Positions 3,203 through 61,041 are shown, counted from the stretch's first letter. The stretch: 64,000 bases of DNA from Candidatus Liptonbacteria bacterium (GCA_016204385.1 JACQKW010000013.1:12507-76506), one strand, 5' to 3'. Notes: a model not told the origin generated them from the letters alone. Numbers and translations are program-made.

Positions 3203-4585
3203 TTATATCATAGATTGAATACCTCGAAGTTTTTTGTGATAGGTGATCGCAAAGCGGTGCGCTTCGTCGCGGACGCGGATGAGCGTTCTTTTCTCTACGC
3301 CCTTGGGGATTATGCCGATTATGTCGTTACGTTTCCGCTCCGGGCCTTTCGCGATGCCGATCACAGGAATTTTAAGGCCGGCCTCGGAGAGCACGTGCTT
3401 CGCCGCATTTACCTGTCCCCTGCCGCCGTCAATCAAAATGAGATTCGGAAGCGGCCACCCTAAATCGCCGTGGGCGATCGGGTGTCTGAACCGCCGCCGA
3501 AGCACTTCTTTGAGCATTCCCACATCGTCCGATTTCTGGATTGTCCGAATTTTGAACTTGCGATACTCGTTTTTATCGGGCTTGTCTCCTCTGAAAACCA
3601 CCATCGAGCCCACCGCGGACGTTCCGGAAATGTTCGAGATGTCATAGCCCTCGATGCGATAATGAGGAGTGAGAATTGAGAAGTGAGTAGTGAGCTCGTT
3701 GTCGCCGATTAAGGCAACATCCTGAATGTGCTGTAGCGCAAAAATCTGGCGGCGAATTGTTTCCGCTTTTTCAAATTCAAGCGCTTTGCTCGCCGCCTTC
3801 ATTTCATGTTCAAGCGACGTGAGGATCATCCCCTTTTTGCCGCGAAAGAACAGCTTGAGATTCTTGATATTCTTTGCATACTCTTTTTGGTTTATCGCAC
3901 CCACGCACGTGCCCGGGCAAAGCCCGATTTCATATTCAAAGCATGGCCGCCTTCGGCTCTCATAATGCGAATCTTCGAATGTGTGCGAATGCTGCCTGCC
4001 CGACTTTGCCTGAGGCAAACTCAGGCGGGCGGGCGAATTGCGAATCCACCGATTGTCGACTGGCAGATTTGGATGAGTACCATAAGGGAAAATTCGCCGC
4101 ATGATTTTGAGCGCCTCGCGGATGCTCCCGGCCGAAGTAAACGGTCCATATCTCTCCCCTGCCGGTTTGGACTTGCCTGCCTGCCCAAGGCCCCGCATTT
4201 GCGGAGCCTCGCCTTTGGCGGGGCGTGGCCGATAGACATGGCCGCGCACAAGGAGGACGCGCGGAAACGCTTCTTTCGTGAACTCCACATAGAGAAAACT
4301 CGTGTCGTCTTTCTCGCGGACATTGTAGGGCGGCTGGTGCTTCTTGATGAGTTCCGCTTCAAGAATAAGCGCCTCGATTGCCGTGTCGGTTTTCTTATAC
4401 TCGATCTTTTTAATTTCGCGTACGAGCTTTTGGATGCGGTAGTCGTGTGGGCGCAGAAAATAGCTCGACACCCGCCGCCGCAAGTTTCCCGCTTTGCCGA
4501 TGTAGAGAATTTTGCCTCTCTCGCCCTTCATGAGATAAACGCCGGGCGAAATAGGCAATTTTTCATAAAGAGTTTTCATGTTCAC
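3203..4585 (-). CDS. uvrC: excinuclease ABC subunit C (short form, no C-terminal HhH2)
   Basis: GIY-YIG N-terminus (PGVYLMKGERGKILYIGKAGNLRRRVSSYF), UVR-like helix (LEHEMKAASKALEFEKAETIRRQIFAL), and an endonuclease domain ending RDEAHRFAITYH. Contains repeat-derived in-frame inserts (see findings). Confidence 0.88.
   Translation of the reverse strand: MNMKTLYEKLPISPGVYLMKGERGKILYIGKAGNLRRRVSSYFLRPHDYRIQKLVREIKKIEYKKTDTAIEALILEAELIKKHQPPYNVREKDDTSFLYVEFTKEAFPRVLLVRGHVYRPRPAKGEAPQMRGLGQAGKSKPAGERYGPFTSAGSIREALKIMRRIFPYGTHPNLPVDNRWIRNSPARLSLPQAKSGRQHSHTFEDSHYESRRRPCFEYEIGLCPGTCVGAINQKEYAKNIKNLKLFFRGKKGMILTSLEHEMKAASKALEFEKAETIRRQIFALQHIQDVALIGDNELTTHFSILTPHYRIEGYDISNISGTSAVGSMVVFRGDKPDKNEYRKFKIRTIQKSDDVGMLKEVLRRRFRHPIAHGDLGWPLPNLILIDGGRGQVNAAKHVLSEAGLKIPVIGIAKGPERKRNDIIGIIPKGVEKRTLIRVRDEAHRFAITYHKKLRGIQSMI
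3667..3694. repeat. 4 x 7-bp tandem NNNTGAG repeat inside uvrC
   Basis: gagtgag aattgag aagtgag tagtgag. It encodes LTTHFSILTPH on the minus strand. Confidence 0.7.
3988..4045. repeat. palindromic element B, copy 1 (in frame inside uvrC)
   Basis: aatgctgcctgcccgactttgcctgaggcaaactcaggcgggcgggcgaattgcgaat. About 96% identical to 62400..62454. Internal dyad cctgagg/ctcagg and outer gcctgcccg/cgggcgggc. Confidence 0.85.
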
Positions 4586-30792: not shown

Positions 30793-30895
30793 GACTTACA
30801 GTATAACAGATAAATCACCAATTAGTTGCGCAGCCGGGTTTTACGGAAAATGAGCCACATTCTTGCGTACCGGAATGGAGTTATCGTGATGTAGA

Positions 30896-30926
30896 AATGA
30901 ATAACCGCACCGCAGAGCGGTGCGGC
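30896..30926. repeat. exact second copy of the 2562..2592 hairpin
   Basis: aatgaataaccgcaccgcagagcggtgcggc, 31/31 identical. Confidence 0.9.
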
Positions 30927-31070
30927 CCGCTCCGCCGGAGCTTCAACGAGGCGAGCAACGCGGCGAGGTATTCTTGCGGACGAAACAATAAAAAGACCCT
31001 CGGCGCGATGTTGCCACACCGAGGTGAGCAAACTTTCGGCTCTCTTTCGGGGTTTCTTTAGATATCACGC

Positions 31071-40895: not shown

Positions 40896-41145
40896 CAGCG
40901 CATACGGGAATCGAACCCGTGTTCCAACGTTGATCCCGTATAAAAATTTGTGTTGTGTGTACCGCTAACCGGATTCGAACCGGTGTTCCAGCGTTGAGAA
41001 CGCTGTGTCCTAGGCCAGACTAGACGATAGCGGCATAAATCAAGAACACTCTAACACAAATTTTATACGGGACAAGGAACGTGGCGCCTGCCCCGCACCG
41101 AGCTTCGCTCTGGTGCGTGGGTCCTAGCCACTAGACGAATGCGCC
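40896..41145 (-). other. composite locus: tRNA-like 5' part and 3' part separated by an inverted-repeat-bounded insert containing tRNA-Glu
   Basis: The 5' part GGCGCAT-TC-GTCT-AGTGGCTA-GGAC (41145-41121) and the 3' part GAAC-ACGGG-TTCGATT-CCCGT-ATGCGCT-G (40924-40896) have acceptor strands that pair 7/7 with one G.U. The inverted-repeat arms are at 41053-41084 and 40924-40954. Confidence 0.6.
40960..41034 (-). tRNA. tRNA-Glu (anticodon CUC)
   Basis: GCCGCTA-TC-GTCT-AGTCTGGCCTA-GGAC-A-CAGCG-TTCTCAA-CGCTG-GAAC-ACCGG-TTCGAAT-CCGGT-TAGCGGT-A. Full cloverleaf, no encoded CCA. Confidence 0.9.
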
Positions 41146-46925: not shown

Positions 46926-47233
46926 CGCTTTCTCCTCAAAAATTACTGCCCCAACCCTACCACACGTACCCCGACGTTGCAATGGATATTCACGATAAAA
47001 AAATACGCCCGTGTGAGTCCTCTGTCGGAGACCCACACGGGGTCGCTAGTGGTCGATACGCAGACCGAGGGGAACCCCACGAGGGGTCAGGGCGCTCGGT
47101 GCGCGAGTCAGCGACTCTCTGATTATCACCACTATCGAAATCCCGTCAAGTATGGCTATGTGGAATATGCCGCTCCGCTATTCGCTTACTTGTGGTAAGT
47201 TTATCGAACCACTTGTGGTGAGCGTGCCGAACC

Positions 47234-47287
47234 ATTCGTACACCTGCCCGTCTGCCTGCCTCTGACATGGCCTCCGGCGGGAATTAG
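47234..47287. repeat. element C, copy 1 (downstream of cfa)
   Basis: attcgtacacctgcccgtctgcctgcctctgacatggcctccggcgggaattag. About 83% identical to 48494..48547, same orientation. Confidence 0.8.
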
Positions 47288-48493: not shown

Positions 48494-48547
48494 ATTCACG
48501 CGCCTGCCCGTCCGCCTGTCTCTGACATGGCCTCTCGCGCGAATTAG
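48494..48547. repeat. element C, copy 2 (upstream of cfa), splitting an ATTCGCGCGAAT-type palindrome
   Basis: attcacgcgcctgcccgtccgcctgtctctgacatggcctctcgcgcgaattag. Confidence 0.8.
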
Positions 48548-48552
48548 AGACG

Positions 48553-48813
48553 CTACAGTAATGACAAAACGTGACGCACGGTTGATTTGTGCATTAACGC
48601 AAGCCGATAGAACATTTGAAGGCTACGCTGATCTTTCTCCACGATATCCGCAGAGGCAAGGAGCGTAAGGTGCTTCGAGGTCGCTTTGAACGAAAGATTG
48701 ATCTTATGAGCGATCTCTGCAACCGGCGCTTCCTGCGTCCGCTTGAGATATTTAAGGATTGCGAGCCGCCGACGGTTTGCAAGCATTTTGAGAGTACGTT
48801 CCAATTCTTTCAT
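48553..48813 (-). CDS. ArsR-family transcriptional regulator (small)
   Basis: LKMLANRRRLAILKYLKRTQEAPVAEIAHKINLSFKATSKHLTLLASADIVEKDQRS. Confidence 0.8.
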   Translation of the reverse strand: MKELERTLKMLANRRRLAILKYLKRTQEAPVAEIAHKINLSFKATSKHLTLLASADIVEKDQRSLQMFYRLALMHKSTVRHVLSLL

Positions 48814-48840
48814 GATTTCCCTATTGTATCATATTCGCCT

Positions 48841-48852
48841 ATTCGCGCGAAT
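48841..48852. promoter_or_regulatory. perfect 12-bp palindrome ATTCGCGCGAAT upstream of the ArsR-family gene
   Basis: Lies within the conserved block tcgcctattcgcgcgaattagagatga, which repeats at 49126-49152. Confidence 0.5.
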
Positions 48853-48878
48853 TAGAGATGATTACAACGTAAGTAAAT

Positions 48879-49097: not shown

Positions 49098-49134
49098 AAA
49101 TTTACTTGTGGCGAACTAATCAAACTATTCGCTT

Positions 49135-49146
49135 ATTCGCGCGAAT
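49135..49146. promoter_or_regulatory. second copy of ATTCGCGCGAAT palindrome, upstream of the DUF167 gene
   Basis: ttcgcttattcgcgcgaattagagatga. Confidence 0.5.
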
Positions 49147-49206
49147 TAGAGATGAGAAACGAGACAAAAAGAGGGGGCGGGCAGAATGTTGGAATGTGGT
49201 GGTTGG

Positions 49207-49572
49207 TTACTTGCCGTCCGGATTGTACAGTATCTCAATGTTCGTGCCGTCGGGGTCTACGATGAACGCGATGTATTGCTCTCCGCGGTGGGGGCGCGTG
49301 CCCGGCTTTCCGTTATCTTTCCCTCCGGCCGTAAGTCCCGCTTCGTAGGCACGCTCCACCGCGGCTCTCTCGGGCGCGCGGAACGCCACATGCGCGCCTC
49401 GGGTCACATACTCTTGCATTCGGAGCCAGACGCTCGTGCCCTCGCGTCCCTTGTAGCTTACAAATCCGTCCCCCTCCCTGAACAATTGGTATCCGAGCGC
49501 TCCCAACACCGCGCCATAGAACTTTTTGCTTTGCGCAAGATCGCTCACGCGAAGCGAGATATGGTCAATCAT
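49207..49572 (-). CDS. VOC/glyoxalase-family protein
   Basis: MIDHISLRVSDLAQSKKFYGAVLGALGY...HVAFRA...GEQYIAFIVDPDGTNIE. Confidence 0.8.
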   Translation of the reverse strand: MIDHISLRVSDLAQSKKFYGAVLGALGYQLFREGDGFVSYKGREGTSVWLRMQEYVTRGAHVAFRAPERAAVERAYEAGLTAGGKDNGKPGTRPHRGEQYIAFIVDPDGTNIEILYNPDGK

Positions 49573-49847
49573 ATTATTTCCACGCCGTGAGAGAAGGCGA
49601 AGTGCCCTTTAATCTCTTTCGCGGGTTCTGTGGGTGTGGGATACATCCACGCGGCGTCTTTGTTCACGTCCTTCCCCACCGTTATGTCGTAGTAGTCGCA
49701 CACGCCTTTCCACGCGCACGTGTAGGTGTTACCGCTTTTCGTGAGATATTCCATTTTCACGGAGTCCGGCGGAAAGTAGTGGTTCTTTTCGACCACCACG
49801 GTCTTCTCGCTCTCCGCGATGATCGTGTTTTTCCAGATTGCCTTCAT
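49569..49847 (-). CDS. DUF427 protein
   Basis: NTIIAESEKTVVVEKNHYFPPDSVKMEYLTKSGNTYTCAWKGVCDYYDI. Confidence 0.75.
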   Translation of the reverse strand: MKAIWKNTIIAESEKTVVVEKNHYFPPDSVKMEYLTKSGNTYTCAWKGVCDYYDITVGKDVNKDAAWMYPTPTEPAKEIKGHFAFSHGVEII

Positions 49848-49916
49848 GCGCGTTGCGTGATTCGGAGCGTATTCAAAAAACTAAATTTTTGTATCTTCAT
49901 TATCTTTACCATAAGT

Positions 49917-50017
49917 CCGGGTCGTCCCCGGCTTGGATAGTTACTCGCGTAGCTCTCTCGAGTCGGGGCATTGCCCCTTAATTATCTATACAAGTATAAC
50001 CGATTTTTCAGGATAAA
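49917..50017. repeat. ~100-bp direct repeat, left copy
   Basis: ...cggcttggatagttactcgcgtagctctctcgagtcggggcattgccccttaattatctatacaagtataaccgatttttcagg... matches 53076..53174 at about 85-90%. Confidence 0.85.
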
Positions 50018-50065
50018 TTAAGAAAAAAGTTTCTTTTACTCGCGTTGCGATTGCTGCTACTTTAT

Positions 50066-50743
50066 TTATTGCTTTTTATCAAGGAGAGGTGGTCTGATGA
50101 ATTGTTGTACGTCTGATTTAATAAGTATTCTCTTTACATCTGTCTTCTTGACAAGAGATAGCATGGGGTTTGTTGAGTTTTTTGGATTATTCTCGTCGGG
50201 AATTGAAAATCCAATATATTCGACTTTTTTCTTCTTTCTAATACGGACCCAATCAATAGCGGGGACTAAGTCAGAATCTGAACTTACCACAATGGCTGTA
50301 TCATACTGATTGTCTACCGCCCCCACAATAAGATCAGTAGCAAGTTTAACGTCTATCCCCTTCTCGCGTAACCTTTCAAATCTAATTTTATCGATGCCAG
50401 CCTTACGAATTCTTTGATAATCGACAACACGGCTATCTATTGTTATCTCCTCGAGTCTTGTTTTAAGTTTACTTGTTTTAATTTCCCACTTATCACGCTT
50501 TAAAATAGTGAAAAGAGAGGTTTGTTTTGCCATCGCCTCCTTGCTTCTTGGGTCACCTTCTTTTTCTCGGACGGTACCAACATAAAATCTTTTACCCATG
50601 TCAACAATGATCCGCCCATTCGCCAAAAATTTGGCGAACCCTTCAAAATCGAAACCAGCCTCTTGTACCCCAAGTTTTTTAAGTGCCAAATGGTAAAAGT
50701 TACCTGCATCAATGAGAATCGAGACCCGTTCTTTACTAGCCAT
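50066..50743 (-). CDS. NYN-domain (LabA/DUF88-like) protein
   Basis: VSILIDAGNFYHL...EKGIDVKLATDLIVGAVDNQYDTAIVVSSDSDLVPAI (PIN-like acidic residues). Confidence 0.7.
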   Translation of the reverse strand: MASKERVSILIDAGNFYHLALKKLGVQEAGFDFEGFAKFLANGRIIVDMGKRFYVGTVREKEGDPRSKEAMAKQTSLFTILKRDKWEIKTSKLKTRLEEITIDSRVVDYQRIRKAGIDKIRFERLREKGIDVKLATDLIVGAVDNQYDTAIVVSSDSDLVPAIDWVRIRKKKKVEYIGFSIPDENNPKNSTNPMLSLVKKTDVKRILIKSDVQQFIRPPLLDKKQ

Positions 50744-51110
50744 ATCCCTTAAATTATGCATGAAAATAAAAACCTGCACACTACCTTTCGGCAGGCGCAG
50801 GTGACTTTCATGTCTATGATAGGCATTTATGCCAAAGGGGTCAAGTCGTTCTTGTTAATATTGCTATTTGATCAGTATTTACCTTGCCTTATTCAAGTTT
50901 CCTGGTTACTTGTTACTCCTCCGGGGTGCTTGCCCGCCTCCCTGTCTGCCTCTGGCACGATGGAGGGAGGCCGCCTGCCTGCCGGTAGGCAGGTAGAGTT
51001 TACTCGTGGTGAGTGAAGTCGAACCATTTTCTTGTCCCGTAGTGAATGCTTTGCGTTCTACTACTGGGGTTTGTTGACCAGTTATACATTTTTAAAATTA
51101 CGCCGAGATC

Positions 51111-51995
51111 TCATAATTCCCTCTCCTCTATTTTAAAAGAGTTAAATTGAGCCTTTGGCTCACTCGACCCCCTCGAGGGAATTAGACCTACACTCATCGC
51201 AAGTGGTTCAAGTAGTGGGGCCGGTGTAAAAATGTACGTGCCAGATAAAGTTTGATAGTCCGCGTTTTCCGGCTTATTCGGTAGGTATTTTATATCTAGA
51301 ATTACCCTAAATTGACCGGCAGAAAGAGGGTCGTGTAGTATTCTCGTTTGGATTTCTGATCCCTTTCGAAAACCGCCAGCAGTGGTCAAGCGTATTCTTC
51401 CTGTTCTCTGTTCTTGAATAGGCACCCAATCTTGCCCAACGCCCCGCAGGGCTTTTAGAGTCACAGATGTATAATCGTCATCTCCTATAACGATCTCATA
51501 AAGACCGTGAATCAAAATCACGATATTGCTCACTTCTGTCCCCAAAGGAATAAATTTTAACTCAAAAGTCGATTTAGCGGAGATCGGTTGGTGAAATTTA
51601 AGTAGGCCGGCGGTACTAGTGGTGACTAGTTGAAACAAAGCACGATCCTTACTAAGAGCCGTCAGGCTTGCAAGCCCAAGTTGTTGCCACCTCCCATCTT
51701 CGAAGTTACTCTCGTCTAAAATTTTTGCACTTGATATCAAGTTCTCGGTATGTTCGCCTGCCTGGCTGGAACGATCAATCATTGTAAAGGGACCATATCC
51801 TAATTTTCCAGTTATAAGATACTGCCCAATGAAGTAAATAAAAATCAGAAGCAACACCACTAAGAACACTGGAAGGAATCCTCGTTTTTCTAAGTCGGGC
51901 CCCCACCTTTTCTTAATGATGTCGTAGATGACACCCTGAATCCGCCGCCATAGAAATTCTTTATCGCTTTTCAATTCGGGAATTTCATTACTCAT
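51111..51995 (-). CDS. membrane-anchored protein with beta-rich (jelly-roll-like) ectodomain, unknown function
   Basis: TM LPVFLVVLLLIFIYFIGQYLI. Beta-strand-rich remainder. 4-bp ATGA overlap with the upstream gene. Confidence 0.5.
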   Translation of the reverse strand: MSNEIPELKSDKEFLWRRIQGVIYDIIKKRWGPDLEKRGFLPVFLVVLLLIFIYFIGQYLITGKLGYGPFTMIDRSSQAGEHTENLISSAKILDESNFEDGRWQQLGLASLTALSKDRALFQLVTTSTAGLLKFHQPISAKSTFELKFIPLGTEVSNIVILIHGLYEIVIGDDDYTSVTLKALRGVGQDWVPIQEQRTGRIRLTTAGGFRKGSEIQTRILHDPLSAGQFRVILDIKYLPNKPENADYQTLSGTYIFTPAPLLEPLAMSVGLIPSRGSSEPKAQFNSFKIEEREL

Positions 51996-53050
51996 CGAAG
52001 TAGTTCCCAGGCAGTGCCTCGGATATAAAAATTATCAATAACAACACCATCGCTGTTTTGCCACAACGCTAATCCAACCTGGTCGGATCCTCCATCAGGA
52101 GCCTGAATCCGGTCGTTATCAACATACTCCAGTACTACTTCCGATGCTGAAAACTTAAAGTTTGGATTTACTTGTTCATCAAATTCCAATGGTCGAATAG
52201 CGAGTTGATAAACGAAATCTTTTCGAACAAATCGTGCGTGATAGCGAACCCCGGCTGTCATCTCAAAACTCCTCCCTCTGATTTCTGGTAATTCACTGGG
52301 ATGGTGAAAGAGTATGGTTGCCTTATTGCCTACACCGCCTAACACAAACTCATTACGGGTTGAATTAAGGAAATAAAAAACCAATCCCACACGCTTCCCT
52401 AGAGGAGTAAATTCAAAGTCAACCGTTATATCGCTAGAGAACGGATACAGAAAAGCGAGGGAGCCGTGTTTATATTCAGTAGTTTTTGTTTGTACGAGAA
52501 GCTTCTCGTTATCTACTACAAACCAATCGGCTGGATTACCTTTCGGAATTAACCAAACCTTCGATTTCGTCAGTGGAGTGGTAAAAGAATCCAGATATCC
52601 AATTGTTAAATCAAAATCTAAGCTTTTAGACGATCCTGTTGGTTCAGTATACTCCAACCGCAATTTATATTTTTGTGGAGCTAATGCGTAAGCAGGCTCA
52701 AAAACAACGGAGTCGTCCGCGAAACTTGTTGCCCCGTGGAATTCATTGACCAAAACATTTTCTGAATCATTAATTTGTAGTTGTAGTGATTGAAAATTAA
52801 TAGTTGATCGGAACCTCAAAACAATGTTTGGACGTAGAGTGGTGGAATAAATACTGTTTTGAACCCCCCGGCGTAACAAGACATTATCGACAAAAACCTC
52901 TACTGATTCTTGTGATGGAGTAATTTGTGGACCAACGATCAGTTCCTGTTGTTTGTGATTTGCAAATAACAAAATAACCACCACGGTAGCGAAGACAATC
53001 GCCCCTATCAATAAAATAATCCGGAAATTATTAGGAGTGTGAGATTTCAT
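51992..53050 (-). CDS. membrane-anchored protein with beta-rich (jelly-roll/LamG-like) ectodomain, unknown function
   Basis: TM FRIILLIGAIVFATVVVILLF. C-terminus LALWQNSDGVVIDNFYIRG resembles DUF1080/LamG-type ends (from memory). Confidence 0.5.
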   Translation of the reverse strand: MKSHTPNNFRIILLIGAIVFATVVVILLFANHKQQELIVGPQITPSQESVEVFVDNVLLRRGVQNSIYSTTLRPNIVLRFRSTINFQSLQLQINDSENVLVNEFHGATSFADDSVVFEPAYALAPQKYKLRLEYTEPTGSSKSLDFDLTIGYLDSFTTPLTKSKVWLIPKGNPADWFVVDNEKLLVQTKTTEYKHGSLAFLYPFSSDITVDFEFTPLGKRVGLVFYFLNSTRNEFVLGGVGNKATILFHHPSELPEIRGRSFEMTAGVRYHARFVRKDFVYQLAIRPLEFDEQVNPNFKFSASEVVLEYVDNDRIQAPDGGSDQVGLALWQNSDGVVIDNFYIRGTAWELLR

Positions 53051-53075
53051 TTAATTATTAGGTAAAAAAACTGAA

Positions 53076-53174
53076 CCGGGTTGGCCTCGGCTTGGATAGT
53101 TACTCACGTAGCTCTCTCGAGTCGGGGTATTGCCCCATTAACTCGTACAGTATAACCGATTTTTTGAGGAAAAT
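53076..53174. repeat. ~100-bp direct repeat, right copy
   Basis: ...cggcttggatagttactcacgtagctctctcgagtcggggtattgccccattaactcgtacagtataaccgattttttgagg... Confidence 0.85.
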
Positions 53175-53237
53175 CGAAGGGGAACACTGTGGATAACTTT
53201 CGGTTTTCTTTCGGTATCCTCGTTTTATAATAATACT

Positions 53238-54683
53238 ATGGTCACCAAAAAACAAAAACAAATTTGGGATTTTGTTCAAAAATTTCTTTCCCAAAAAGGA
53301 TTCTCTCCCACCCACGAAGAAATAAGAAAACATTTCAAACTTCGGGCTGTTTCAACGGTTGCGCAGCATATTAAAGCACTAGAAAATAAGGGGCTTATTG
53401 CCAAACAAAGCAATCAAAGACGCGGTATTGAAATCACAAAATCAGAGCCGTTAGTAAAAATTCCCCTCCTCGGCACAATTAGTGCGGGTCAACCCATAGA
53501 AGCAATTCAAGACAAGGAAATGATCGCTGTTCCTAAGAGCAAAATTCCTCCTTCGTCAGAAGTTTATGCTCTCCGGGTAGTCGGCAGTAGTATGGTTGAT
53601 GAAAATATAAATGATGGGGACATTGTTTTGGTCCGCCAACAAGCAACAGCAGAGAATGGGCAAAAAGTTGTAGCTCTTATTGATAACCACGATGCGACAC
53701 TAAAGAAGTTTTATAAAGAGCGAGGGTATGTCCGTTTGCAACCAGCAAACAAAACTATGGAGCCGCTTATTTTCCGAAACGGGCGGGATATTTCAATACA
53801 AGGGATAGTGCTTGATGTTATTCGCGAGGAGGGAAATTCTAAGATTCAATTATCAGAGGAATATAAAGAATCGGGAAGGAGTCTATTACAAAATGCATAT
53901 TATAAAAAGCAGGGATTTATTCTGTATCATGGAAATTCTTTAGGTATCCTATCTAAACTTCCGGAAGCTTCCGTAGATATGATTTTTTCAGATCCTCCGT
54001 ACAATCTTTCAAATGGAGGGTTTACTGTCCACGCGGGTAGAATGGTTAGTGTTAATAAAGGTGAGTGGGATAGAAGTAAGGGATTTCAGGATGATTACGA
54101 CTTCCATTACAATTGGCTCGCGGCCGCTAAAAGGGTTTTGAAGCCTGGTGGTAGTTTATGGGTTAGTGGAACCTATCATTCGATTTACCAATGCGGTTAT
54201 GCACTTCAGGCTCTTGGCTACCATATTTTGAATGACATCTCGTGGTTTAAGCCCAATGCGGCGCCAAATTTAAGTTGTAGATTTTTCACGGCGAGTCATG
54301 AAACTTTAATATGGGCGAGGAAAGAAAAAAAAGGAAAACATATTTTTAATTATAAAACGATGAAAGATGGGATTTGGAATGGAGACTTTCTCAAAAAACC
54401 TAATATGCAAATGCGTTCAGTGTGGGCTATTGGAACTCCAAAACCAGAAGAAAAAAAATTTGGCAAACATCCAACCCAAAAACCTTATGAACTATTGAAG
54501 CGCATTGTTCTTGCCAGCACTAACAAGGGAGATTTAATTATTGATCCTTTTACCGGTAGTTCAACAACGGGCATGGCGGCATATCTCCAAAACAGAAATT
54601 TCATCGGTATCGATACCGAAAAGAAATATTTAGATTTATCTATCAAGAGATTGGAAGATCTGAGTAAAAGATCTCTAGTATAG
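53238..54683 (+). CDS. LexA-like repressor (wHTH + S24 peptidase) fused to beta-class N6A/N4C DNA methyltransferase (CcrM/HinfI-like)
   Basis: Residues 1-200 contain the LexA DNA-binding domain (THEEIRKHFKLRAVSTVAQHIKALENKGLI), the cleavage site ISA83-G84QP, GSS117M and ATLK155KF. Residues about 230-481 contain FSDPPYNL (motif IV) followed by IIDPFTGSSTTGMAA (motif I), i.e. beta-class order. TATAAT (53226-53231) ends 7 nt before the ATG, so the transcript may be leaderless. Confidence 0.85.
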   Translation: MVTKKQKQIWDFVQKFLSQKGFSPTHEEIRKHFKLRAVSTVAQHIKALENKGLIAKQSNQRRGIEITKSEPLVKIPLLGTISAGQPIEAIQDKEMIAVPKSKIPPSSEVYALRVVGSSMVDENINDGDIVLVRQQATAENGQKVVALIDNHDATLKKFYKERGYVRLQPANKTMEPLIFRNGRDISIQGIVLDVIREEGNSKIQLSEEYKESGRSLLQNAYYKKQGFILYHGNSLGILSKLPEASVDMIFSDPPYNLSNGGFTVHAGRMVSVNKGEWDRSKGFQDDYDFHYNWLAAAKRVLKPGGSLWVSGTYHSIYQCGYALQALGYHILNDISWFKPNAAPNLSCRFFTASHETLIWARKEKKGKHIFNYKTMKDGIWNGDFLKKPNMQMRSVWAIGTPKPEEKKFGKHPTQKPYELLKRIVLASTNKGDLIIDPFTGSSTTGMAAYLQNRNFIGIDTEKKYLDLSIKRLEDLSKRSLV

Positions 54684-54685
54684 AC

Positions 54686-55258
54686 TTATTTATAGCCGGG
54701 CATGGCTGCCTGAAGTACTTCGGTATAATGCAGTTTACCGTCAACATAATCACGTAAGGTCATAAGAAGATCGCGAAACATGTACGCCCCGAGGTTTATT
54801 TTTTCATTCTTACAAAAAAGTTCAATAACCGTTGCTACATAATCAAGAGAAAGAGTGTAGTTCTGCTCTATATAGGAATACTTTGAGATAATAATTTTAA
54901 CGGTCTCAAGTTGATAACCATTTCGTTCTTCAACCGAAGAAAAAGGCGTAGCGGCGTTGTAGTAGTTAATATAATATTCAACAATCTCTCTTACTTCTTT
55001 ACGATACTGTGGAATTTTGAGGAGCAAATCCACAACCCAAAATGTATGGGTGGGTGGCCTAAGTACCTTATCTGATCCGGGAATTAAAATCTTAACAACA
55101 AAATCAAGTTTTGGATTTATCCCACGACTTCCTTGAAACAGTCCTATTAACGTTCCATCTTTAGTTTTATAGGTCAGAAAGGCTTCGGCTTTAGGCCTAA
55201 GCTGTTTTAGATTGGTACCATCGTAATATTTTGAATTATAGACTGAGTTTGTGGGCAT
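54686..55258 (-). CDS. hypothetical protein in R-M-like module
   Basis: 190-aa ORF, tail-to-tail with the methyltransferase (2-bp gap) and 3 bp after the upstream nuclease-like ORF. No motif recognised. Confidence 0.5.
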   Translation of the reverse strand: MPTNSVYNSKYYDGTNLKQLRPKAEAFLTYKTKDGTLIGLFQGSRGINPKLDFVVKILIPGSDKVLRPPTHTFWVVDLLLKIPQYRKEVREIVEYYINYYNAATPFSSVEERNGYQLETVKIIISKYSYIEQNYTLSLDYVATVIELFCKNEKINLGAYMFRDLLMTLRDYVDGKLHYTEVLQAAMPGYK

Positions 55259-55261
55259 TGT

Positions 55262-55894
55262 TTATTTCTTGGGAATTGGTAGGCCGAGAACTTTTAGTGG
55301 TAGCATGTGAAAATAATAATTACAGCCGACATCACTGATAAAACTTAGTGTATCTTTATATTCTGGTTTCTTGAACCAATCACTTAATATATAGATAAAT
55401 TCAACATCAATCTTGAGTAATTTAAAAAGTTTTTGATACTGTCTCTTTTTAAAATCACAGGTTTGTAATTTTTCATCTACGGAGCCGGCGACCTCTTGAA
55501 ATTTCATCTCTATAATGAATACCTTCCTTTGGTTTTGTACATAAAGCGCTTCGTCTGGAAGTAACTTTTTTGAGAGGACCGTTTTATAATCAACCCCACG
55601 CTTTTCAAGGAAACGATAGAGTTTGTTCTTGCCGATACTCTGAGCTACCTTTTCGCCATCGTAAAATATCGAATCACCCTGCACAGAATATCTGGGTGTC
55701 TTAGCAAATACTAAAAGTAAATTAACCCGTTCCTCAAAATCCAGCCCAACGCGCGTACTTGCTCCCCCAATGCCATCTTTAATCATTTTTTTGTCATTAG
55801 AAATTCTGGTTTTTAACTTGGAATCTGACGGAACAGAAAGTATTGATTTTTCCAGTCCTCCCTCCTTCGTGTAAAGCTTCGAACGAGCAATCAA
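55262..55894 (-). CDS. putative PD-(D/E)xK restriction endonuclease
   Basis: LLPDEALYVQNQRKVFIIEMKFQ fits PD...(D/E)xK. Adjacent to a methyltransferase and AT-rich like the rest of the island. Confidence 0.5.
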   Translation of the reverse strand: MIARSKLYTKEGGLEKSILSVPSDSKLKTRISNDKKMIKDGIGGASTRVGLDFEERVNLLLVFAKTPRYSVQGDSIFYDGEKVAQSIGKNKLYRFLEKRGVDYKTVLSKKLLPDEALYVQNQRKVFIIEMKFQEVAGSVDEKLQTCDFKKRQYQKLFKLLKIDVEFIYILSDWFKKPEYKDTLSFISDVGCNYYFHMLPLKVLGLPIPKK

Positions 55895-56125
55895 CCTTTA
55901 TCGTTTCCCATCTTCGACCGCAAGCCGTTTGCCGACCCCGTACCAAAGATTATGCCTTGCTACGGGGTAAACCTTCCTGCTCCGTCCATAATGCGGCGGG
56001 ACAGGTTCGTACGTACGGATTTACGTACTTATCATCGCTCTCGGTGGAGATTTTTTCAAGTCTCCTTAGGCATGGCGATAGACCGAAAAAAAAGAGCCCC
56101 GTAGGGCTCTCGGACGAGGGCATGT

Positions 56126-56284
56126 TCACACGTCAAGCGATTTCACGAGGTTCGCGAAAAGCTGCACGCATGCCGTGTGAACATGGAAAAGAACGTTGCT
56201 CTGATCGTGCGGAGCGTATATCGCGACCGTGCGCTTGCCCTCCACGGGATCCGACTTCTTACACAGCACGCAATTTCCAGTCAT
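56126..56284 (-). CDS. small Cys/His protein (short version of ORF 56126..56710)
   Basis: MTGNCVLCKKSDPVEGKRTVAIYAPHDQSNVLFHVHTACVQLFANLVKSLDV. SD GGAGA upstream. Terminator hairpin gagccc-cgta-gggctc downstream (56086-56111). Confidence 0.3.
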   Translation of the reverse strand: MTGNCVLCKKSDPVEGKRTVAIYAPHDQSNVLFHVHTACVQLFANLVKSLDV

Positions 56285-56498
56285 TCTCCGTCTCCTCTCA
56301 AAGATTTCTGCCTGTACCCTACCACATAGTGTTTTTGGTTGTAAAGAAACCGTCGCCGCAGTAAAAATCAACGCAATGAAGCCCTCGGACATAGGGCTTT
56401 TGGGCCGTCGCCTGGAGCAGAAAAATTGTGTGGCAGGCAAGTTTGATTCGACTCTGTATTGTGATACTATAATCTTGGACGTAGGAAGGGAGGATCTC

Positions 56499-56702
56499 AT
56501 GGGCGATCCAGGAGAACCCGGATCAGCGTCGAGGGAAATAATTAGAGTTTCTCTCCTCGCGGGACGTGGTATGGCAGTATGCACCTGCAACGCTCCTTCA
56601 GGTGCTGACGACATGGAGCATGCACCCGATTGCTCGGTCAGGACCTCGTTCGAGCGAGCCAGGGAGATCATGAGAGAGGAAAGAGAAAGACGGGAGAGAT
56701 AG
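56499..56702 (+). CDS. small protein, unknown function
   Basis: SD GGGAGG 6 nt before the ATG. Upstream TTGATT...TATAAT promoter-like pair (56445-56476). Arg/Glu-rich C-terminus. Confidence 0.35.
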   Translation: MGDPGEPGSASREIIRVSLLAGRGMAVCTCNAPSGADDMEHAPDCSVRTSFERAREIMREERERRER

Positions 56703-56847
56703 AGGAGCACGGCAATTCAGGGTTGCGAAGTTCGTTTCACTCAAGCTCGGCAGTCGTGTCTGATTGCTGGGCTTTTTCTTTTTCTTCTCTTTTGGGCCGG
56801 TTTTTGAAGTATTAAAAAAACCGCTCGGCGGGCGGTTAGAGCGGATT

Positions 56848-57150
56848 TTATTTCACGCGCCTCCTTTTCTTCAACGAATAGGCTCCAAAGCCAATCAAGC
56901 CAAACCCTAAAAGATAACCATCCACAAAAACCGGCATGACCGGCTGACTACAACCCGCGAGGGCGCAAATCTCCGGCGAAGGTTTTTGCGTCGACGGAAG
57001 CCCCGTGATAAGCAATCTTGGTGCCAGCCGCACTGTGTCGCTCCCGCAACTGCCGCAACCTACTTCAATACGATTTCCCCCTAATAGAAAGCTAGCAACA
57101 ATTACCGCTATCCCAAAAACAATGAAGATGTATAGAAAAAGCTTGTTCAT
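56848..57150 (-). CDS. small membrane protein with N- and C-terminal TM and KKRRRVK tail
   Basis: SD GAGGAG. The C-terminus PVMPVFVDGYLLGFGLIGFGAYSLKKRRRVK resembles a sorting-signal architecture. Confidence 0.55.
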   Translation of the reverse strand: MNKLFLYIFIVFGIAVIVASFLLGGNRIEVGCGSCGSDTVRLAPRLLITGLPSTQKPSPEICALAGCSQPVMPVFVDGYLLGFGLIGFGAYSLKKRRRVK

Positions 57151-57217
57151 ATTTACTCCTCAAGAATACCCCTTTTCTGCCACTTTTTGAAGCACAAAAA
57201 AACCGTGAGCTTCTGGC

Positions 57218-57625
57218 TCACGGTTGTGTCGGCTGTGTTTTCTCGAAGGACACGCCCCATCCGATTCTGCGAAAGAGATCCACTACAAAGACGACGAACT
57301 GCTTCGCCGATTTCAGGGGCAGGGTTGCGTCTTCGCGCACGCTCACGACCTTTGTGACGCAGTCACCCATCCCGAAGGGATAGGGTTTCCCCTTCTCCTC
57401 GTAGATAAGCGAGAACATTGAGAAGCCCCGGCCGCGGCTTACGCGAACTATTCCCCCTTCCAGTCCCGAAAATTTCTCTTGTGCAATGGCGGTGAGGAGA
57501 GCGCCGAGCGCCTCGGCGAAGGGTTGTGCAAGCGCGGCTTCGTTCATGTAGGCCTGAAGTTCGCCGAGATGAAACGAGGGATTGCCCGGCACGGCGGGAA
57601 GAAGCTTCACGGTAACCTCTCTCAA
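57218..57625 (-). CDS. hypothetical protein (TTG start)
   Basis: AAGGAGG 7 nt upstream of TTG at 57625. 135 aa. Confidence 0.5.
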   Translation of the reverse strand: MREVTVKLLPAVPGNPSFHLGELQAYMNEAALAQPFAEALGALLTAIAQEKFSGLEGGIVRVSRGRGFSMFSLIYEEKGKPYPFGMGDCVTKVVSVREDATLPLKSAKQFVVFVVDLFRRIGWGVSFEKTQPTQP

Positions 57626-60817: not shown

Positions 60818-60967
60818 AAGCGTTCGTAATGGTTCAATAGCTTGGAACTCCGACGTTTCGGTCGGAGTCCGACCTCGCATCCTGCGAGCGTCGGGCCTCT
60901 GACCTGTCGCGTGTGAACGGAGCGCTCTGCTATTGAGCTCCGACGTTGCAGTCGGGGCTAAACGCCC
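60818..60967 (-). pseudogene. tRNA-Val-like gene interrupted by CCGAC/GTCGG hairpins (D stem 10/11 and anticodon loop 37/38), T arm not recognisable
   Basis: GGGCGTT-TA-G[CCCCGACTGCAACGTCGGAG]CTC-AATAGCA-GAGC-G-CTCCG-TTCACA[58 nt, 60911-60854]T-CGGAG..., aligned by eye to the intact tRNA-Val. Confidence 0.6.
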
Positions 60968-60969
60968 GG

Positions 60970-61041
60970 TGCGCGTTGCAGGGATCGAACCTGCCACCTC
61001 TCCGATGTGAACGGAGCGCTCTGCCACTGAGCTAAACGCGC
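60970..61041 (-). tRNA. tRNA-Val (anticodon CAC)
   Basis: GCGCGTT-TA-GCTC-AGTGGCA-GAGC-G-CTCCG-TTCACAT-CGGAG-AGGTG-GCAGG-TTCGATC-CCTGC-AACGCGC-A. Confidence 0.9.

Follow-up and report, generated by a model that had tools for sequence, protein, structure and literature searches.

The stretch of DNA analyzed here (the window: 64,000 nucleotides of Candidatus Liptonbacteria bacterium, GCA_016204385.1, JACQKW010000013.1:12507-76506) contains two direct repeats of about 110 nt in an AT-rich island beside a DUF427 gene. Between them lies a 3,159-bp block, which we call module 2, with an NYN-domain gene and genes for two proteins predicted to be membrane-anchored; a cassette headed by a LexA-methylase fusion gene (module 1) lies to its right. 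We read the repeated unit as a portable promoter with a transcribed leader on the minus strand, located in an acquired island of two modules, where module 2 would have entered by recombination inside the unit. We give this reading a probability of roughly 55%. The composition of the island, the repeat, the homologies of the modules and the pattern of conservation were observed directly; from these we predict that the unit acts as a promoter, which strand is transcribed and in what order the events took place.

The starts of the two repeats are 3159 bp apart. Their cores are 61 nt long (49917-49977 for copy 1 and 53076-53136 for copy 2, minus strand) and match at 56 of 61 positions (91.8%), the longest exact run being 21 nt. 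Between 49917-50017 and 53076-53174, identity is 84.5% (87/103, with small indels), and similarity fades around 50025 and 53182, which gives 82% (92/112) over the whole unit of about 110 nt. On the left side similarity starts abruptly at 49917 and 53076, the preceding sequences being unrelated (49% identity). A 39-nt pattern built from the core gave two matches in the window against none in any of 100 shuffles, and neither nhmmer nor a covariance model detected a third copy in the window. The first-pass annotation had described two direct repeats of about 100 bp with 85-90% identity, and these are real, with two copies only. The palindrome that it had noted (GGGGCATTGCCCC in copy 1, GGGGTATTGCCCC in copy 2), its second motif (CTCGAGTC) and the TATACT hexamer on the minus strand are all present in the repeats, and each copy is located, as had been claimed, upstream of a minus-strand gene start (at 49847 for copy 1 and 53050 for copy 2).

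Using pattern scans and exact-protein look-ups, we know six alleles of the unit: the two in the window, two in Logan contigs of the same species (L001 and L009, both from SRR12113383), and two in the metagenome Ga0213870 (L003 and L004), these last being the only copies found in the pattern scan of metagenome contigs. Pattern scans found no copy in viral contigs and no true copy in genome species representatives (only a chance 20-mer in Parapedobacter), and blastn found none in a plasmid collection. A covariance model applied to the window together with 14 loci returned no copies beyond those already known. The sequence CGGCTTGGATAGTTACTC-R-CGTAGCTCTCTCGAGTCGG is identical in all six alleles, forming a 38-nt block in which a single G/A position varies. 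This block is flanked on one side by CCGGG-loop-CCCGG, with a variable loop (hairpin H1), and on the other by GGGG-loop-CCCC (hairpin H3), whose 5' half is different in each of the six alleles; on the minus strand the hairpin loops are GYGA and GCAA (GNRA type). In L003 the core is conserved within flanks that are unalignable or weakly similar. The L004 copy is 86.6% identical to copy 2 over 179 nt, and there the core stands out as an identical run of 40 nt (53088-53127 in the window).

All five copies that reach far enough, two of them in the window and three in metagenome contigs, have on the minus strand, immediately upstream of their core, a pair of -35 and -10 hexamers spaced by 16-17 nt (-35: TTGATT, TCGATT or TTAATT; -10: TATACT, TATAAT or GATAAT). 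In the five-copy alignment, the promoter-like extension of copy 1 (49978-50025) has its -10 TATACT at 49993-49998, a 17-nt spacer, and its -35 TTAATT at 50016-50021; that of copy 2 (53137-53182) has TATACT at 53149-53154, again a 17-nt spacer, and TCGATT at 53172-53177. The hexamers persist in L001 and L003 despite a diverged spacer. Past the core, at a distance of 20-69 nt, four different genes start on the minus strand, encoding DUF427, the 352-aa protein of module 2, a DUF4145-like protein and a ClpP-like protein. The conserved, regularly spaced hexamers pointing into a nearby open reading frame (ORF) are as predicted for a sigma-70-type promoter, and since hexamers at fixed spacing are followed by four unrelated genes 20-69 nt downstream, our preferred reading of the unit is that of a portable promoter with its leader. 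Transcription would proceed from a sigma-70-like promoter (-35 TTGATT-like, 16-17 nt, -10 TATACT/TATAAT) into a leader of 61 nt, passing first the GGGG-loop-CCCC hairpin with its hypervariable 5' half, then the 38-nt block and the CCGGG-loop-CCCGG hairpin, and reaching the gene start 20-69 nt further on. The first-pass annotation had offered a duplicated promoter/5'-leader module as one of two explanations; with hexamers in five copies and four downstream genes it is the better supported one, even if the hexamers in the window are weak. For the same annotation, a unit turning up as a generic promoter upstream of many unrelated genes would have counted against its observation, and the four different downstream genes go part of the way in that direction.

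Several observations weigh against the putative promoter and leader. The -35 hexamers of the window copies are weak, and the two hexamers together agree with the consensus at 8/12 positions, too few for the threshold of the scan. Folding is more stable on the plus strand, which forms one imperfect hairpin of 24 pairs with bulges (-31.7 kcal/mol), compared to three hairpins on the minus strand (-21.8 kcal/mol), and the z-score of the copy 2 fold is -2.4 for the plus and -0.7 for the minus strand. Of the four substitutions in stems, which are one-sided changes, three yield G.U pairs on the plus strand and thus count in its favour, and full-leader folds of the minus strand are inconsistent between copies. 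No pair on either strand shows a compensatory change among five sequences. The U-run that follows H1 in three of five alleles (copy 2, L003 and L004) is missing in copy 1 and L001, and in copy 2 the stem of H1 does not pair fully. The independent contexts number only four, all within one narrow lineage, and one of the contigs, L001, may reflect the path that the assembly took through the repeat instead of a genuine variant strain.

The proposed leader shares several traits with attenuators and other 5'-leader RNAs, namely a conserved promoter-proximal segment between hairpins, alternative helices that overlap and, in three alleles, a GC hairpin with a U-run ahead of the ORF. It differs from them in that its downstream genes are functionally unrelated, in the lack of covariation, of an Rfam family and of a conserved leader peptide, and in a terminator that is weak or absent in both window copies. 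No Rfam model reached its gathering score in the window, and the matches at E <= 10 over 49700-53400 were noise only. Short ORFs starting from the hairpin were considered as a leader peptide and discarded, since they differ in frame or are absent between copies. The single variable position of the core yields either G-C or G.U in one possible helix of the minus strand; like the promoter-like hexamers, the GNRA-type loops and the U-runs of three alleles, it speaks for that strand, in conflict with the hairpin stability and stem changes that favour the plus strand. The unit was also considered as a general part of the methylase cassette, and this too was discarded: the homologous cassettes L006, L007, L008, L016 and L017 do not have it.

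The same succession of elements could be that of a self-contained small-RNA gene on the minus strand, whose promoter and terminator would frame an RNA of about 75 nt, rather than the leader of the gene downstream. The hexamers, the hairpin at the 5' end, the invariant 38-nt segment, which is seed-like, and the GC hairpin with U-run in copy 2, L003 and L004 follow one another in the right order, the neighbouring genes are unrelated, and a lineage-specific small RNA would be expected to have no Rfam match. We nevertheless consider it unlikely. The unit points into a gene 20-69 nt away in four of four contexts, in copy 2 a separate promoter would have to fit into 25 nt, and the presumed terminator lacks its U-run in copy 1 and L001 and has in H1 a stem of only 5 pairs, which is mismatched in copy 2 and L003.

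The invariant core could act as an operator for a DNA-binding protein, or as a regulatory or stabilising RNA leader. In the former case, a refinement of the promoter and leader reading, a repressor (the LexA domain of the fusion or another) would bind the core and gate the promoter upstream, and the cargo would be SOS-induced. Invariance at the sequence level without covariation is typical of protein-DNA sites; the core contains an approximate dyad (CCCCGnCTyG..AGyTAC-N4-GTArCT..CrAGnCGGGG), and the unit adjoins a lexA-type gene at copy 2 and in L004, and probably in L003. The dyad is however imperfect and, at 46 bp, long for LexA. Besides, homologues of the LexA-methylase at other loci of the Candidate Phyla Radiation (CPR) lack the core and share instead TTTCGG-N5-TTTCGG and TGTGGATAA, which are better candidates for a LexA operator. 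We hold the operator as a tentative possibility.

The portable promoter with its leader appears to serve also as a joint. The unit is where the cargo differs between strains. The ancestral layout would have been that of L004, in which the unit is placed directly between a minus-strand gene and the start of a lexA-type gene; here it would have separated DUF427, on the left, from the LexA-methylase gene, on the right. A recombination event within the unit would then have brought in module 2 together with its own copy, which fits the sharp boundaries of similarity (49917/53076 and ~50025/53182). Of the resulting copies, one would drive the DUF427-glyoxalase genes and the other the two membrane-protein genes. 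The same-species contigs, only ~1.2-2.2 kb long, suggest that the cargo at the joint still varies within the population. L001 is 99.8% identical to 49128-49977 of the window, and beyond the core it continues with a different sequence, followed by the 3' end of a gene from a 196-aa family that in L017 adjoins the LexA-methylase gene. In L009, the left flank and core of copy 2 come with a distinct version of the GGGG hairpin, and the contig ends in 7 nt that match the right flank of copy 1. The 3,159-bp block could have closed in this way into a circle or a tandem, the left flank of copy 2 meeting the right flank of copy 1, or the assembly may simply branch at this point. L001, L009 and a further contig of the same species, L002 (SRR12113384), have differing versions of the GGGG hairpin and differing sequence beyond it. 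In Ga0213870, the unit in L003 and L004 stands beside a DUF4145-like gene and a ClpP-like gene, and the cargo near these joints includes ClpP-like and GIY-YIG/T5orf172-like genes as well as DUF4145-like ones.

A joint with such cargo recalls the hotspots of defence islands, where, as here, the genes at a conserved site differ between co-occurring strains and relatives and comprise nuclease-, protease- and restriction-modification-type genes. Unlike in those hotspots, no cargo matches a validated defence system, the sole match being a partial one of the NYN protein to PADLOC HEC-09 (E 1e-13), and the joint is a unit of ~110 nt instead of a pair of core genes.

The other explanation put forward by the first-pass annotation was that the repeats are att-like scars of an integration. 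In its fullest form, they would be attL/attR-like or cassette-exchange sites for a recombinase encoded elsewhere, the 3,159-bp block would be excisable, and the promoter features would be incidental. As in attL/attR islands, direct repeats edge a compositionally foreign block, which they bracket exactly, beside conserved host genes; the long imperfect hairpin of the plus strand, with its G.T pairs, resembles folded single-strand substrates; L001 keeps the DUF427 side and the core and then turns to a different gene; the copy-2-left/copy-1-right junction of L009 looks like that of a circle or tandem; and the 5' half of H3 differs in six of six alleles. We regard this explanation as quite unlikely all the same. 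The first-pass statement that no integrase is present holds for the approximately 45 ORFs scanned with Pfam across the 64 kb, in which we found no tyrosine or serine recombinase, integrase, transposase or HUH protein. No transfer RNA (tRNA) or transfer-messenger RNA (tmRNA) is located at the repeats, and the only tRNAs in the window are at 40959 and 60968 (ARAGORN). The repeats are 92% identical, not 100%, differing at 5 of 61 core positions with no fully identical crossover segment, and they bracket only half of the AT-rich island. The evidence from L009 amounts to 7 nt in a contig with its own H3 allele, and the promoter hexamers have stayed conserved amid bases that have diverged. Scars in the strict sense thus find no support, whereas the weaker notion of a patch of homology at which the cargo differs does fit.

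Integron cassettes offer a second comparison. Their attC sites are, like our unit, direct repeats of ~60-110 nt with an imperfect palindrome, standing between co-oriented blocks of foreign genes, and in both one strand folds better than the other. However, the unit has no R''/R' core sites of the RYYYAAC/GTTRRRY type (the nearest strings are GTTACTC and GAGTAAC), no IntI was found among the ~45 ORFs of the window, and there are only two sites. Moreover, attC is conserved in structure only, whereas our core is invariant over 38 nt in six alleles, and the repeat carries promoter-like hexamers and lies 5' of the genes that follow it. If the 61-nt core were indeed a regulatory and recombination joint of CPR bacteria, plugging nuclease, protease and membrane cargo beside the LexA-methylase, it would represent an integron-like cassette system independent of a recombinase. 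That it is a new joint of this kind, with cargo swapped within the unit and expression responding to damage or infection, we consider a long shot.

The repeat might finally be a small selfish element, MITE- or REP-like (miniature inverted-repeat transposable or repetitive extragenic palindromic) or a plus-strand hairpin element, its conservation reflecting recent spread and not function. The identical core amid unrelated flanks in L003, the stable hairpin of the plus strand, and the several other families of short intergenic repeats in the genome of the window would agree with this. Yet there are only two copies in 64 kb and two in the sole metagenome having the unit, none in the species-representative, viral and plasmid collections, and the boundaries show neither terminal inverted repeats nor a target-site duplication. 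The unit faces the downstream gene in the same orientation every time, and in the comparison with L004 the core behaves as a conserved footprint in a diverging homologous region, not as an insertion. We find a selfish repeat very improbable.

With the unit as a portable promoter and leader, the locus would illustrate how a reduced CPR genome gains and rearranges accessory genes without a visible integrase, a single sequence providing both the expression signal and the patch of homology. The invariant 38 nt are a concrete candidate for an operator or RNA element in an uncultivated lineage.

The island that hosts the two copies extends from 49750 to 55850 and includes six genes in two modules. 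In 500-nt windows, GC content is 0.35-0.46 between ~49750 and ~55750, against 0.50-0.59 in both flanks; per gene, GC at third codon positions (GC3) is 0.33-0.41 in the six island genes, against mostly 0.55-0.70 in the other ORFs of the window. Both measures agree with the AT-rich island of ~6 kb that had been proposed by eye at 49850-55900, with a right edge now adjusted to about 55.79-55.9 kb. The island is, judging from its composition and homologies, horizontally acquired DNA. Its surroundings are ordinary chromosomal genes: mraZ, mraW, a penicillin-binding protein, Mur ligases, triosephosphate isomerase, secA, uvrA, uvrB, uvrC and ribosomal protein L10. The DUF427 gene (49569-49847, minus strand; Pfam PF04248, E 2e-30), first downstream of copy 1, has host GC; its product is one of two window proteins with 100% identity to proteins that NCBI assigns to Candidatus Liptonbacteria. 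We searched for an empty site, and the nearest DUF427 relatives (76-77% identity) were in unrelated contexts with no shared synteny. Exact-protein look-ups for the LexA-methylase, PD-(D/E)XK, NYN and P0090 proteins found no record. A foreign restriction-modification island with a duplicated regulatory region is in itself a fairly ordinary variable locus.

The main gene of module 1 is less ordinary. It spans 53238-54683 on the plus strand and encodes a fusion protein of 481 aa, with a full-length LexA (winged helix-turn-helix and S24 autoprotease) followed by a CcrM-type N6-adenine DNA methylase (Pfam PF01726, PF00717 and PF01555). The LexA part scores 184.9 with the lexA model TIGR00498 (cutoff 110.95), matches a full-length LexA structure (PDB 3k2z, E 1e-33) and shows in its translation the motifs SAG, GSSM and LKKF (Ala-Gly cleavage site and Ser/Lys dyad). 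It thus has the features of an SOS repressor, with RecA-dependent cleavage as a prediction. The methylase part matches PF01555 (E 4e-56), PADLOC MTase_II (E 5e-96) and the CcrM structure 6pbd (E 1e-55). The fusion has at least 120 full-length homologues with 60-77% identity, the named ones belonging to Parcubacteria and Woesebacteria genomes, and about 25 further clusters at 50% identity have the same layout with an N-terminal LexA. The full fusion is encoded in no phage record. A complete LexA joined to a CcrM-type methylase in a restriction-modification-like cassette is a widespread and apparently undescribed architecture (we found no paper describing it in the searchable literature), and as a by-product of this analysis it is more notable than the repeat. 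Such a fusion could couple the SOS signal to DNA methylation or restriction.

The fusion gene is followed by two minus-strand genes. The first (54686-55258) encodes a methylase partner of 190 aa, 76-77% identical to the gene at the same position in L006, L007 and L008. The second (55262-55894) is PD-(D/E)XK nuclease-like and a probable restriction subunit, although its match to Pfam PF20472 (E 8e-5) is below cutoff (22.9 vs 23.7 bits). Its start is probably at 55786 (175 aa) rather than 55894, and the protein is 70% identical, from residue 37 on, to the 175-aa gene products of L007 and L008. The fusion gene adjoins the same partner genes in L006, L007, L008, L016 and L017, with partner identities of 70-78%, and at the DNA level homology covers 53242/53461-55780. 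The PD-(D/E)XK-like partner is kept beside the methylase in L007, L008, L016 and L017, and the middle gene is exchangeable, being of the 190-aa type or, in L017, of an unrelated 196-aa type. A methylase with an adjoining conserved nuclease-like gene corresponds to the gene pairing of a type II restriction-modification system, with a predicted nuclease activity. Module 1 (~53185-55800) thus appears to be a restriction-modification-like cassette circulating among CPR bacteria with a conserved promoter/operator of its own. Its high identity across CPR classes and its foreign composition point to horizontal transfer. Avoidance of GANTC was considered as a clue to specificity and found uninformative: observed/expected is 0.64, yet other N-centred palindromes are lower. 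In L007, the cassette of another CPR genome directly adjoins a tRNA-like sequence (L007:7792-7865), a typical landing site of mobile DNA.

Some type II restriction-modification cassettes have a built-in controller, either a C protein or an N-terminal helix-turn-helix domain of the methylase, as in M.SsoII and M.MspI. Module 1 resembles them in bringing together a methylase and a PD-(D/E)XK-like gene in a compact, mobile and compositionally foreign cassette, in the DNA-binding domain attached to the methylase, and in the conserved operator-like repeat within its own promoter. It differs in its controller, a complete LexA that includes a self-cleaving S24 domain, and in the additional gene of 190 or 196 aa that is swapped between loci.

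The conserved promoter/operator of the LexA-methylase gene (53185-53237, plus strand) lies outside the repeat. It consists of TGTGGATAA at 53188-53196, TTTCGG-N5-TTTCGG at 53198-53214 and TATAAT at 53226-53231, and the same elements are found upstream of homologues in L004, L006 (8013-8043), L007/L008 (~7950-8000 in L007) and L016 (1505-1600), with a run of 35 nt identical between the window and L004. LexA-methylase promoters have the TGTGGATAA(C) form of the first element, which we take to match the DnaA-box consensus, and the TTTCGG direct repeat occurs in either orientation. With TATAAT only ~6 nt ahead of the ATG, the mRNA may be leaderless. A second exact site, AACTTTCGG-N5-TTTCGG, is present at 31031-31050 (plus strand, with TTTCGG-N5-TTTCGG at 31034-31050; ~0.008 exact matches expected by chance), within a hairpin-rich non-coding stretch of 380 nt that has genes for a HAD hydrolase and a 2-hydroxyacid dehydrogenase on either side. 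It may be another target of the regulator of the LexA-methylase promoter.

Module 2 was described by the first-pass annotation as a block of three genes bracketed by the repeats. The repeats do bracket it, but the NYN gene has an upstream region of its own of 331 nt, so that the block probably comprises two transcription units. All three genes are on the minus strand. The NYN-domain protein (50066-50779), with a LabA-like nuclease fold, is recognized by Pfam PF01936 (E 2.5e-15) and has a GC3 of 0.35. In the spacer upstream of it (50780-51110), the consensus scan located a promoter-like site, TTGACC-17-TATCAT (50844-50816). The spacer also has GC-rich motifs in common with host intergenic regions: an GTCAGAGGCAGGCAGACGGGCAGG-like motif and an CACCACAAGTAA motif occur at 47186-47287, 48494-48547, 49102-49125 and 50933-51030, both repeat families being thus shared by host intergenic DNA and the island. 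The next gene (51111-51995) encodes a protein of 294 aa with one hydrophobic segment, without a Pfam, NCBIfam or PADLOC match and weakly similar to its 352-aa neighbour. The latter, predicted as an ORF at 51992-53050, has an N-terminal hydrophobic segment and is the first gene downstream of copy 2.

Right of the island, about 950 nt of host-like GC (55895-56850) contain no convincing gene, only overlapping ORFs without a family match; Rfam at E <= 10 gave nothing relevant over 55700-57300. A strong terminator is located there on the minus strand (56092-56111), possibly at the end of an ORF of 52 aa. Left of the island, the palindrome ATTCGCGCGAAT, within TCTCTAATTCGCGCGAATAGGCGAATA, is found at 48535-48553, 48840-48861 and 49134-49155, upstream of three neighbouring minus-strand genes (cyclopropane fatty acid synthase, an ArsR-like regulator and DUF167), and looks like an ArsR-type operator common to a small local regulon. 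Elsewhere in the window, tRNA-Val(CAC) is directly followed by a degenerate tRNA-like copy broken by hairpin inserts (60830-61041, minus strand), with an exact repeat of 19 nt at 60912 and 61006. An exact repeat of 26 nt links the uvrC coding region (3993-4018) with the region upstream of the L10 gene (62402-62427), and one of 32 nt, containing a terminator-like hairpin, occupies two distant intergenic sites (2561-2592 and 30895-30926).

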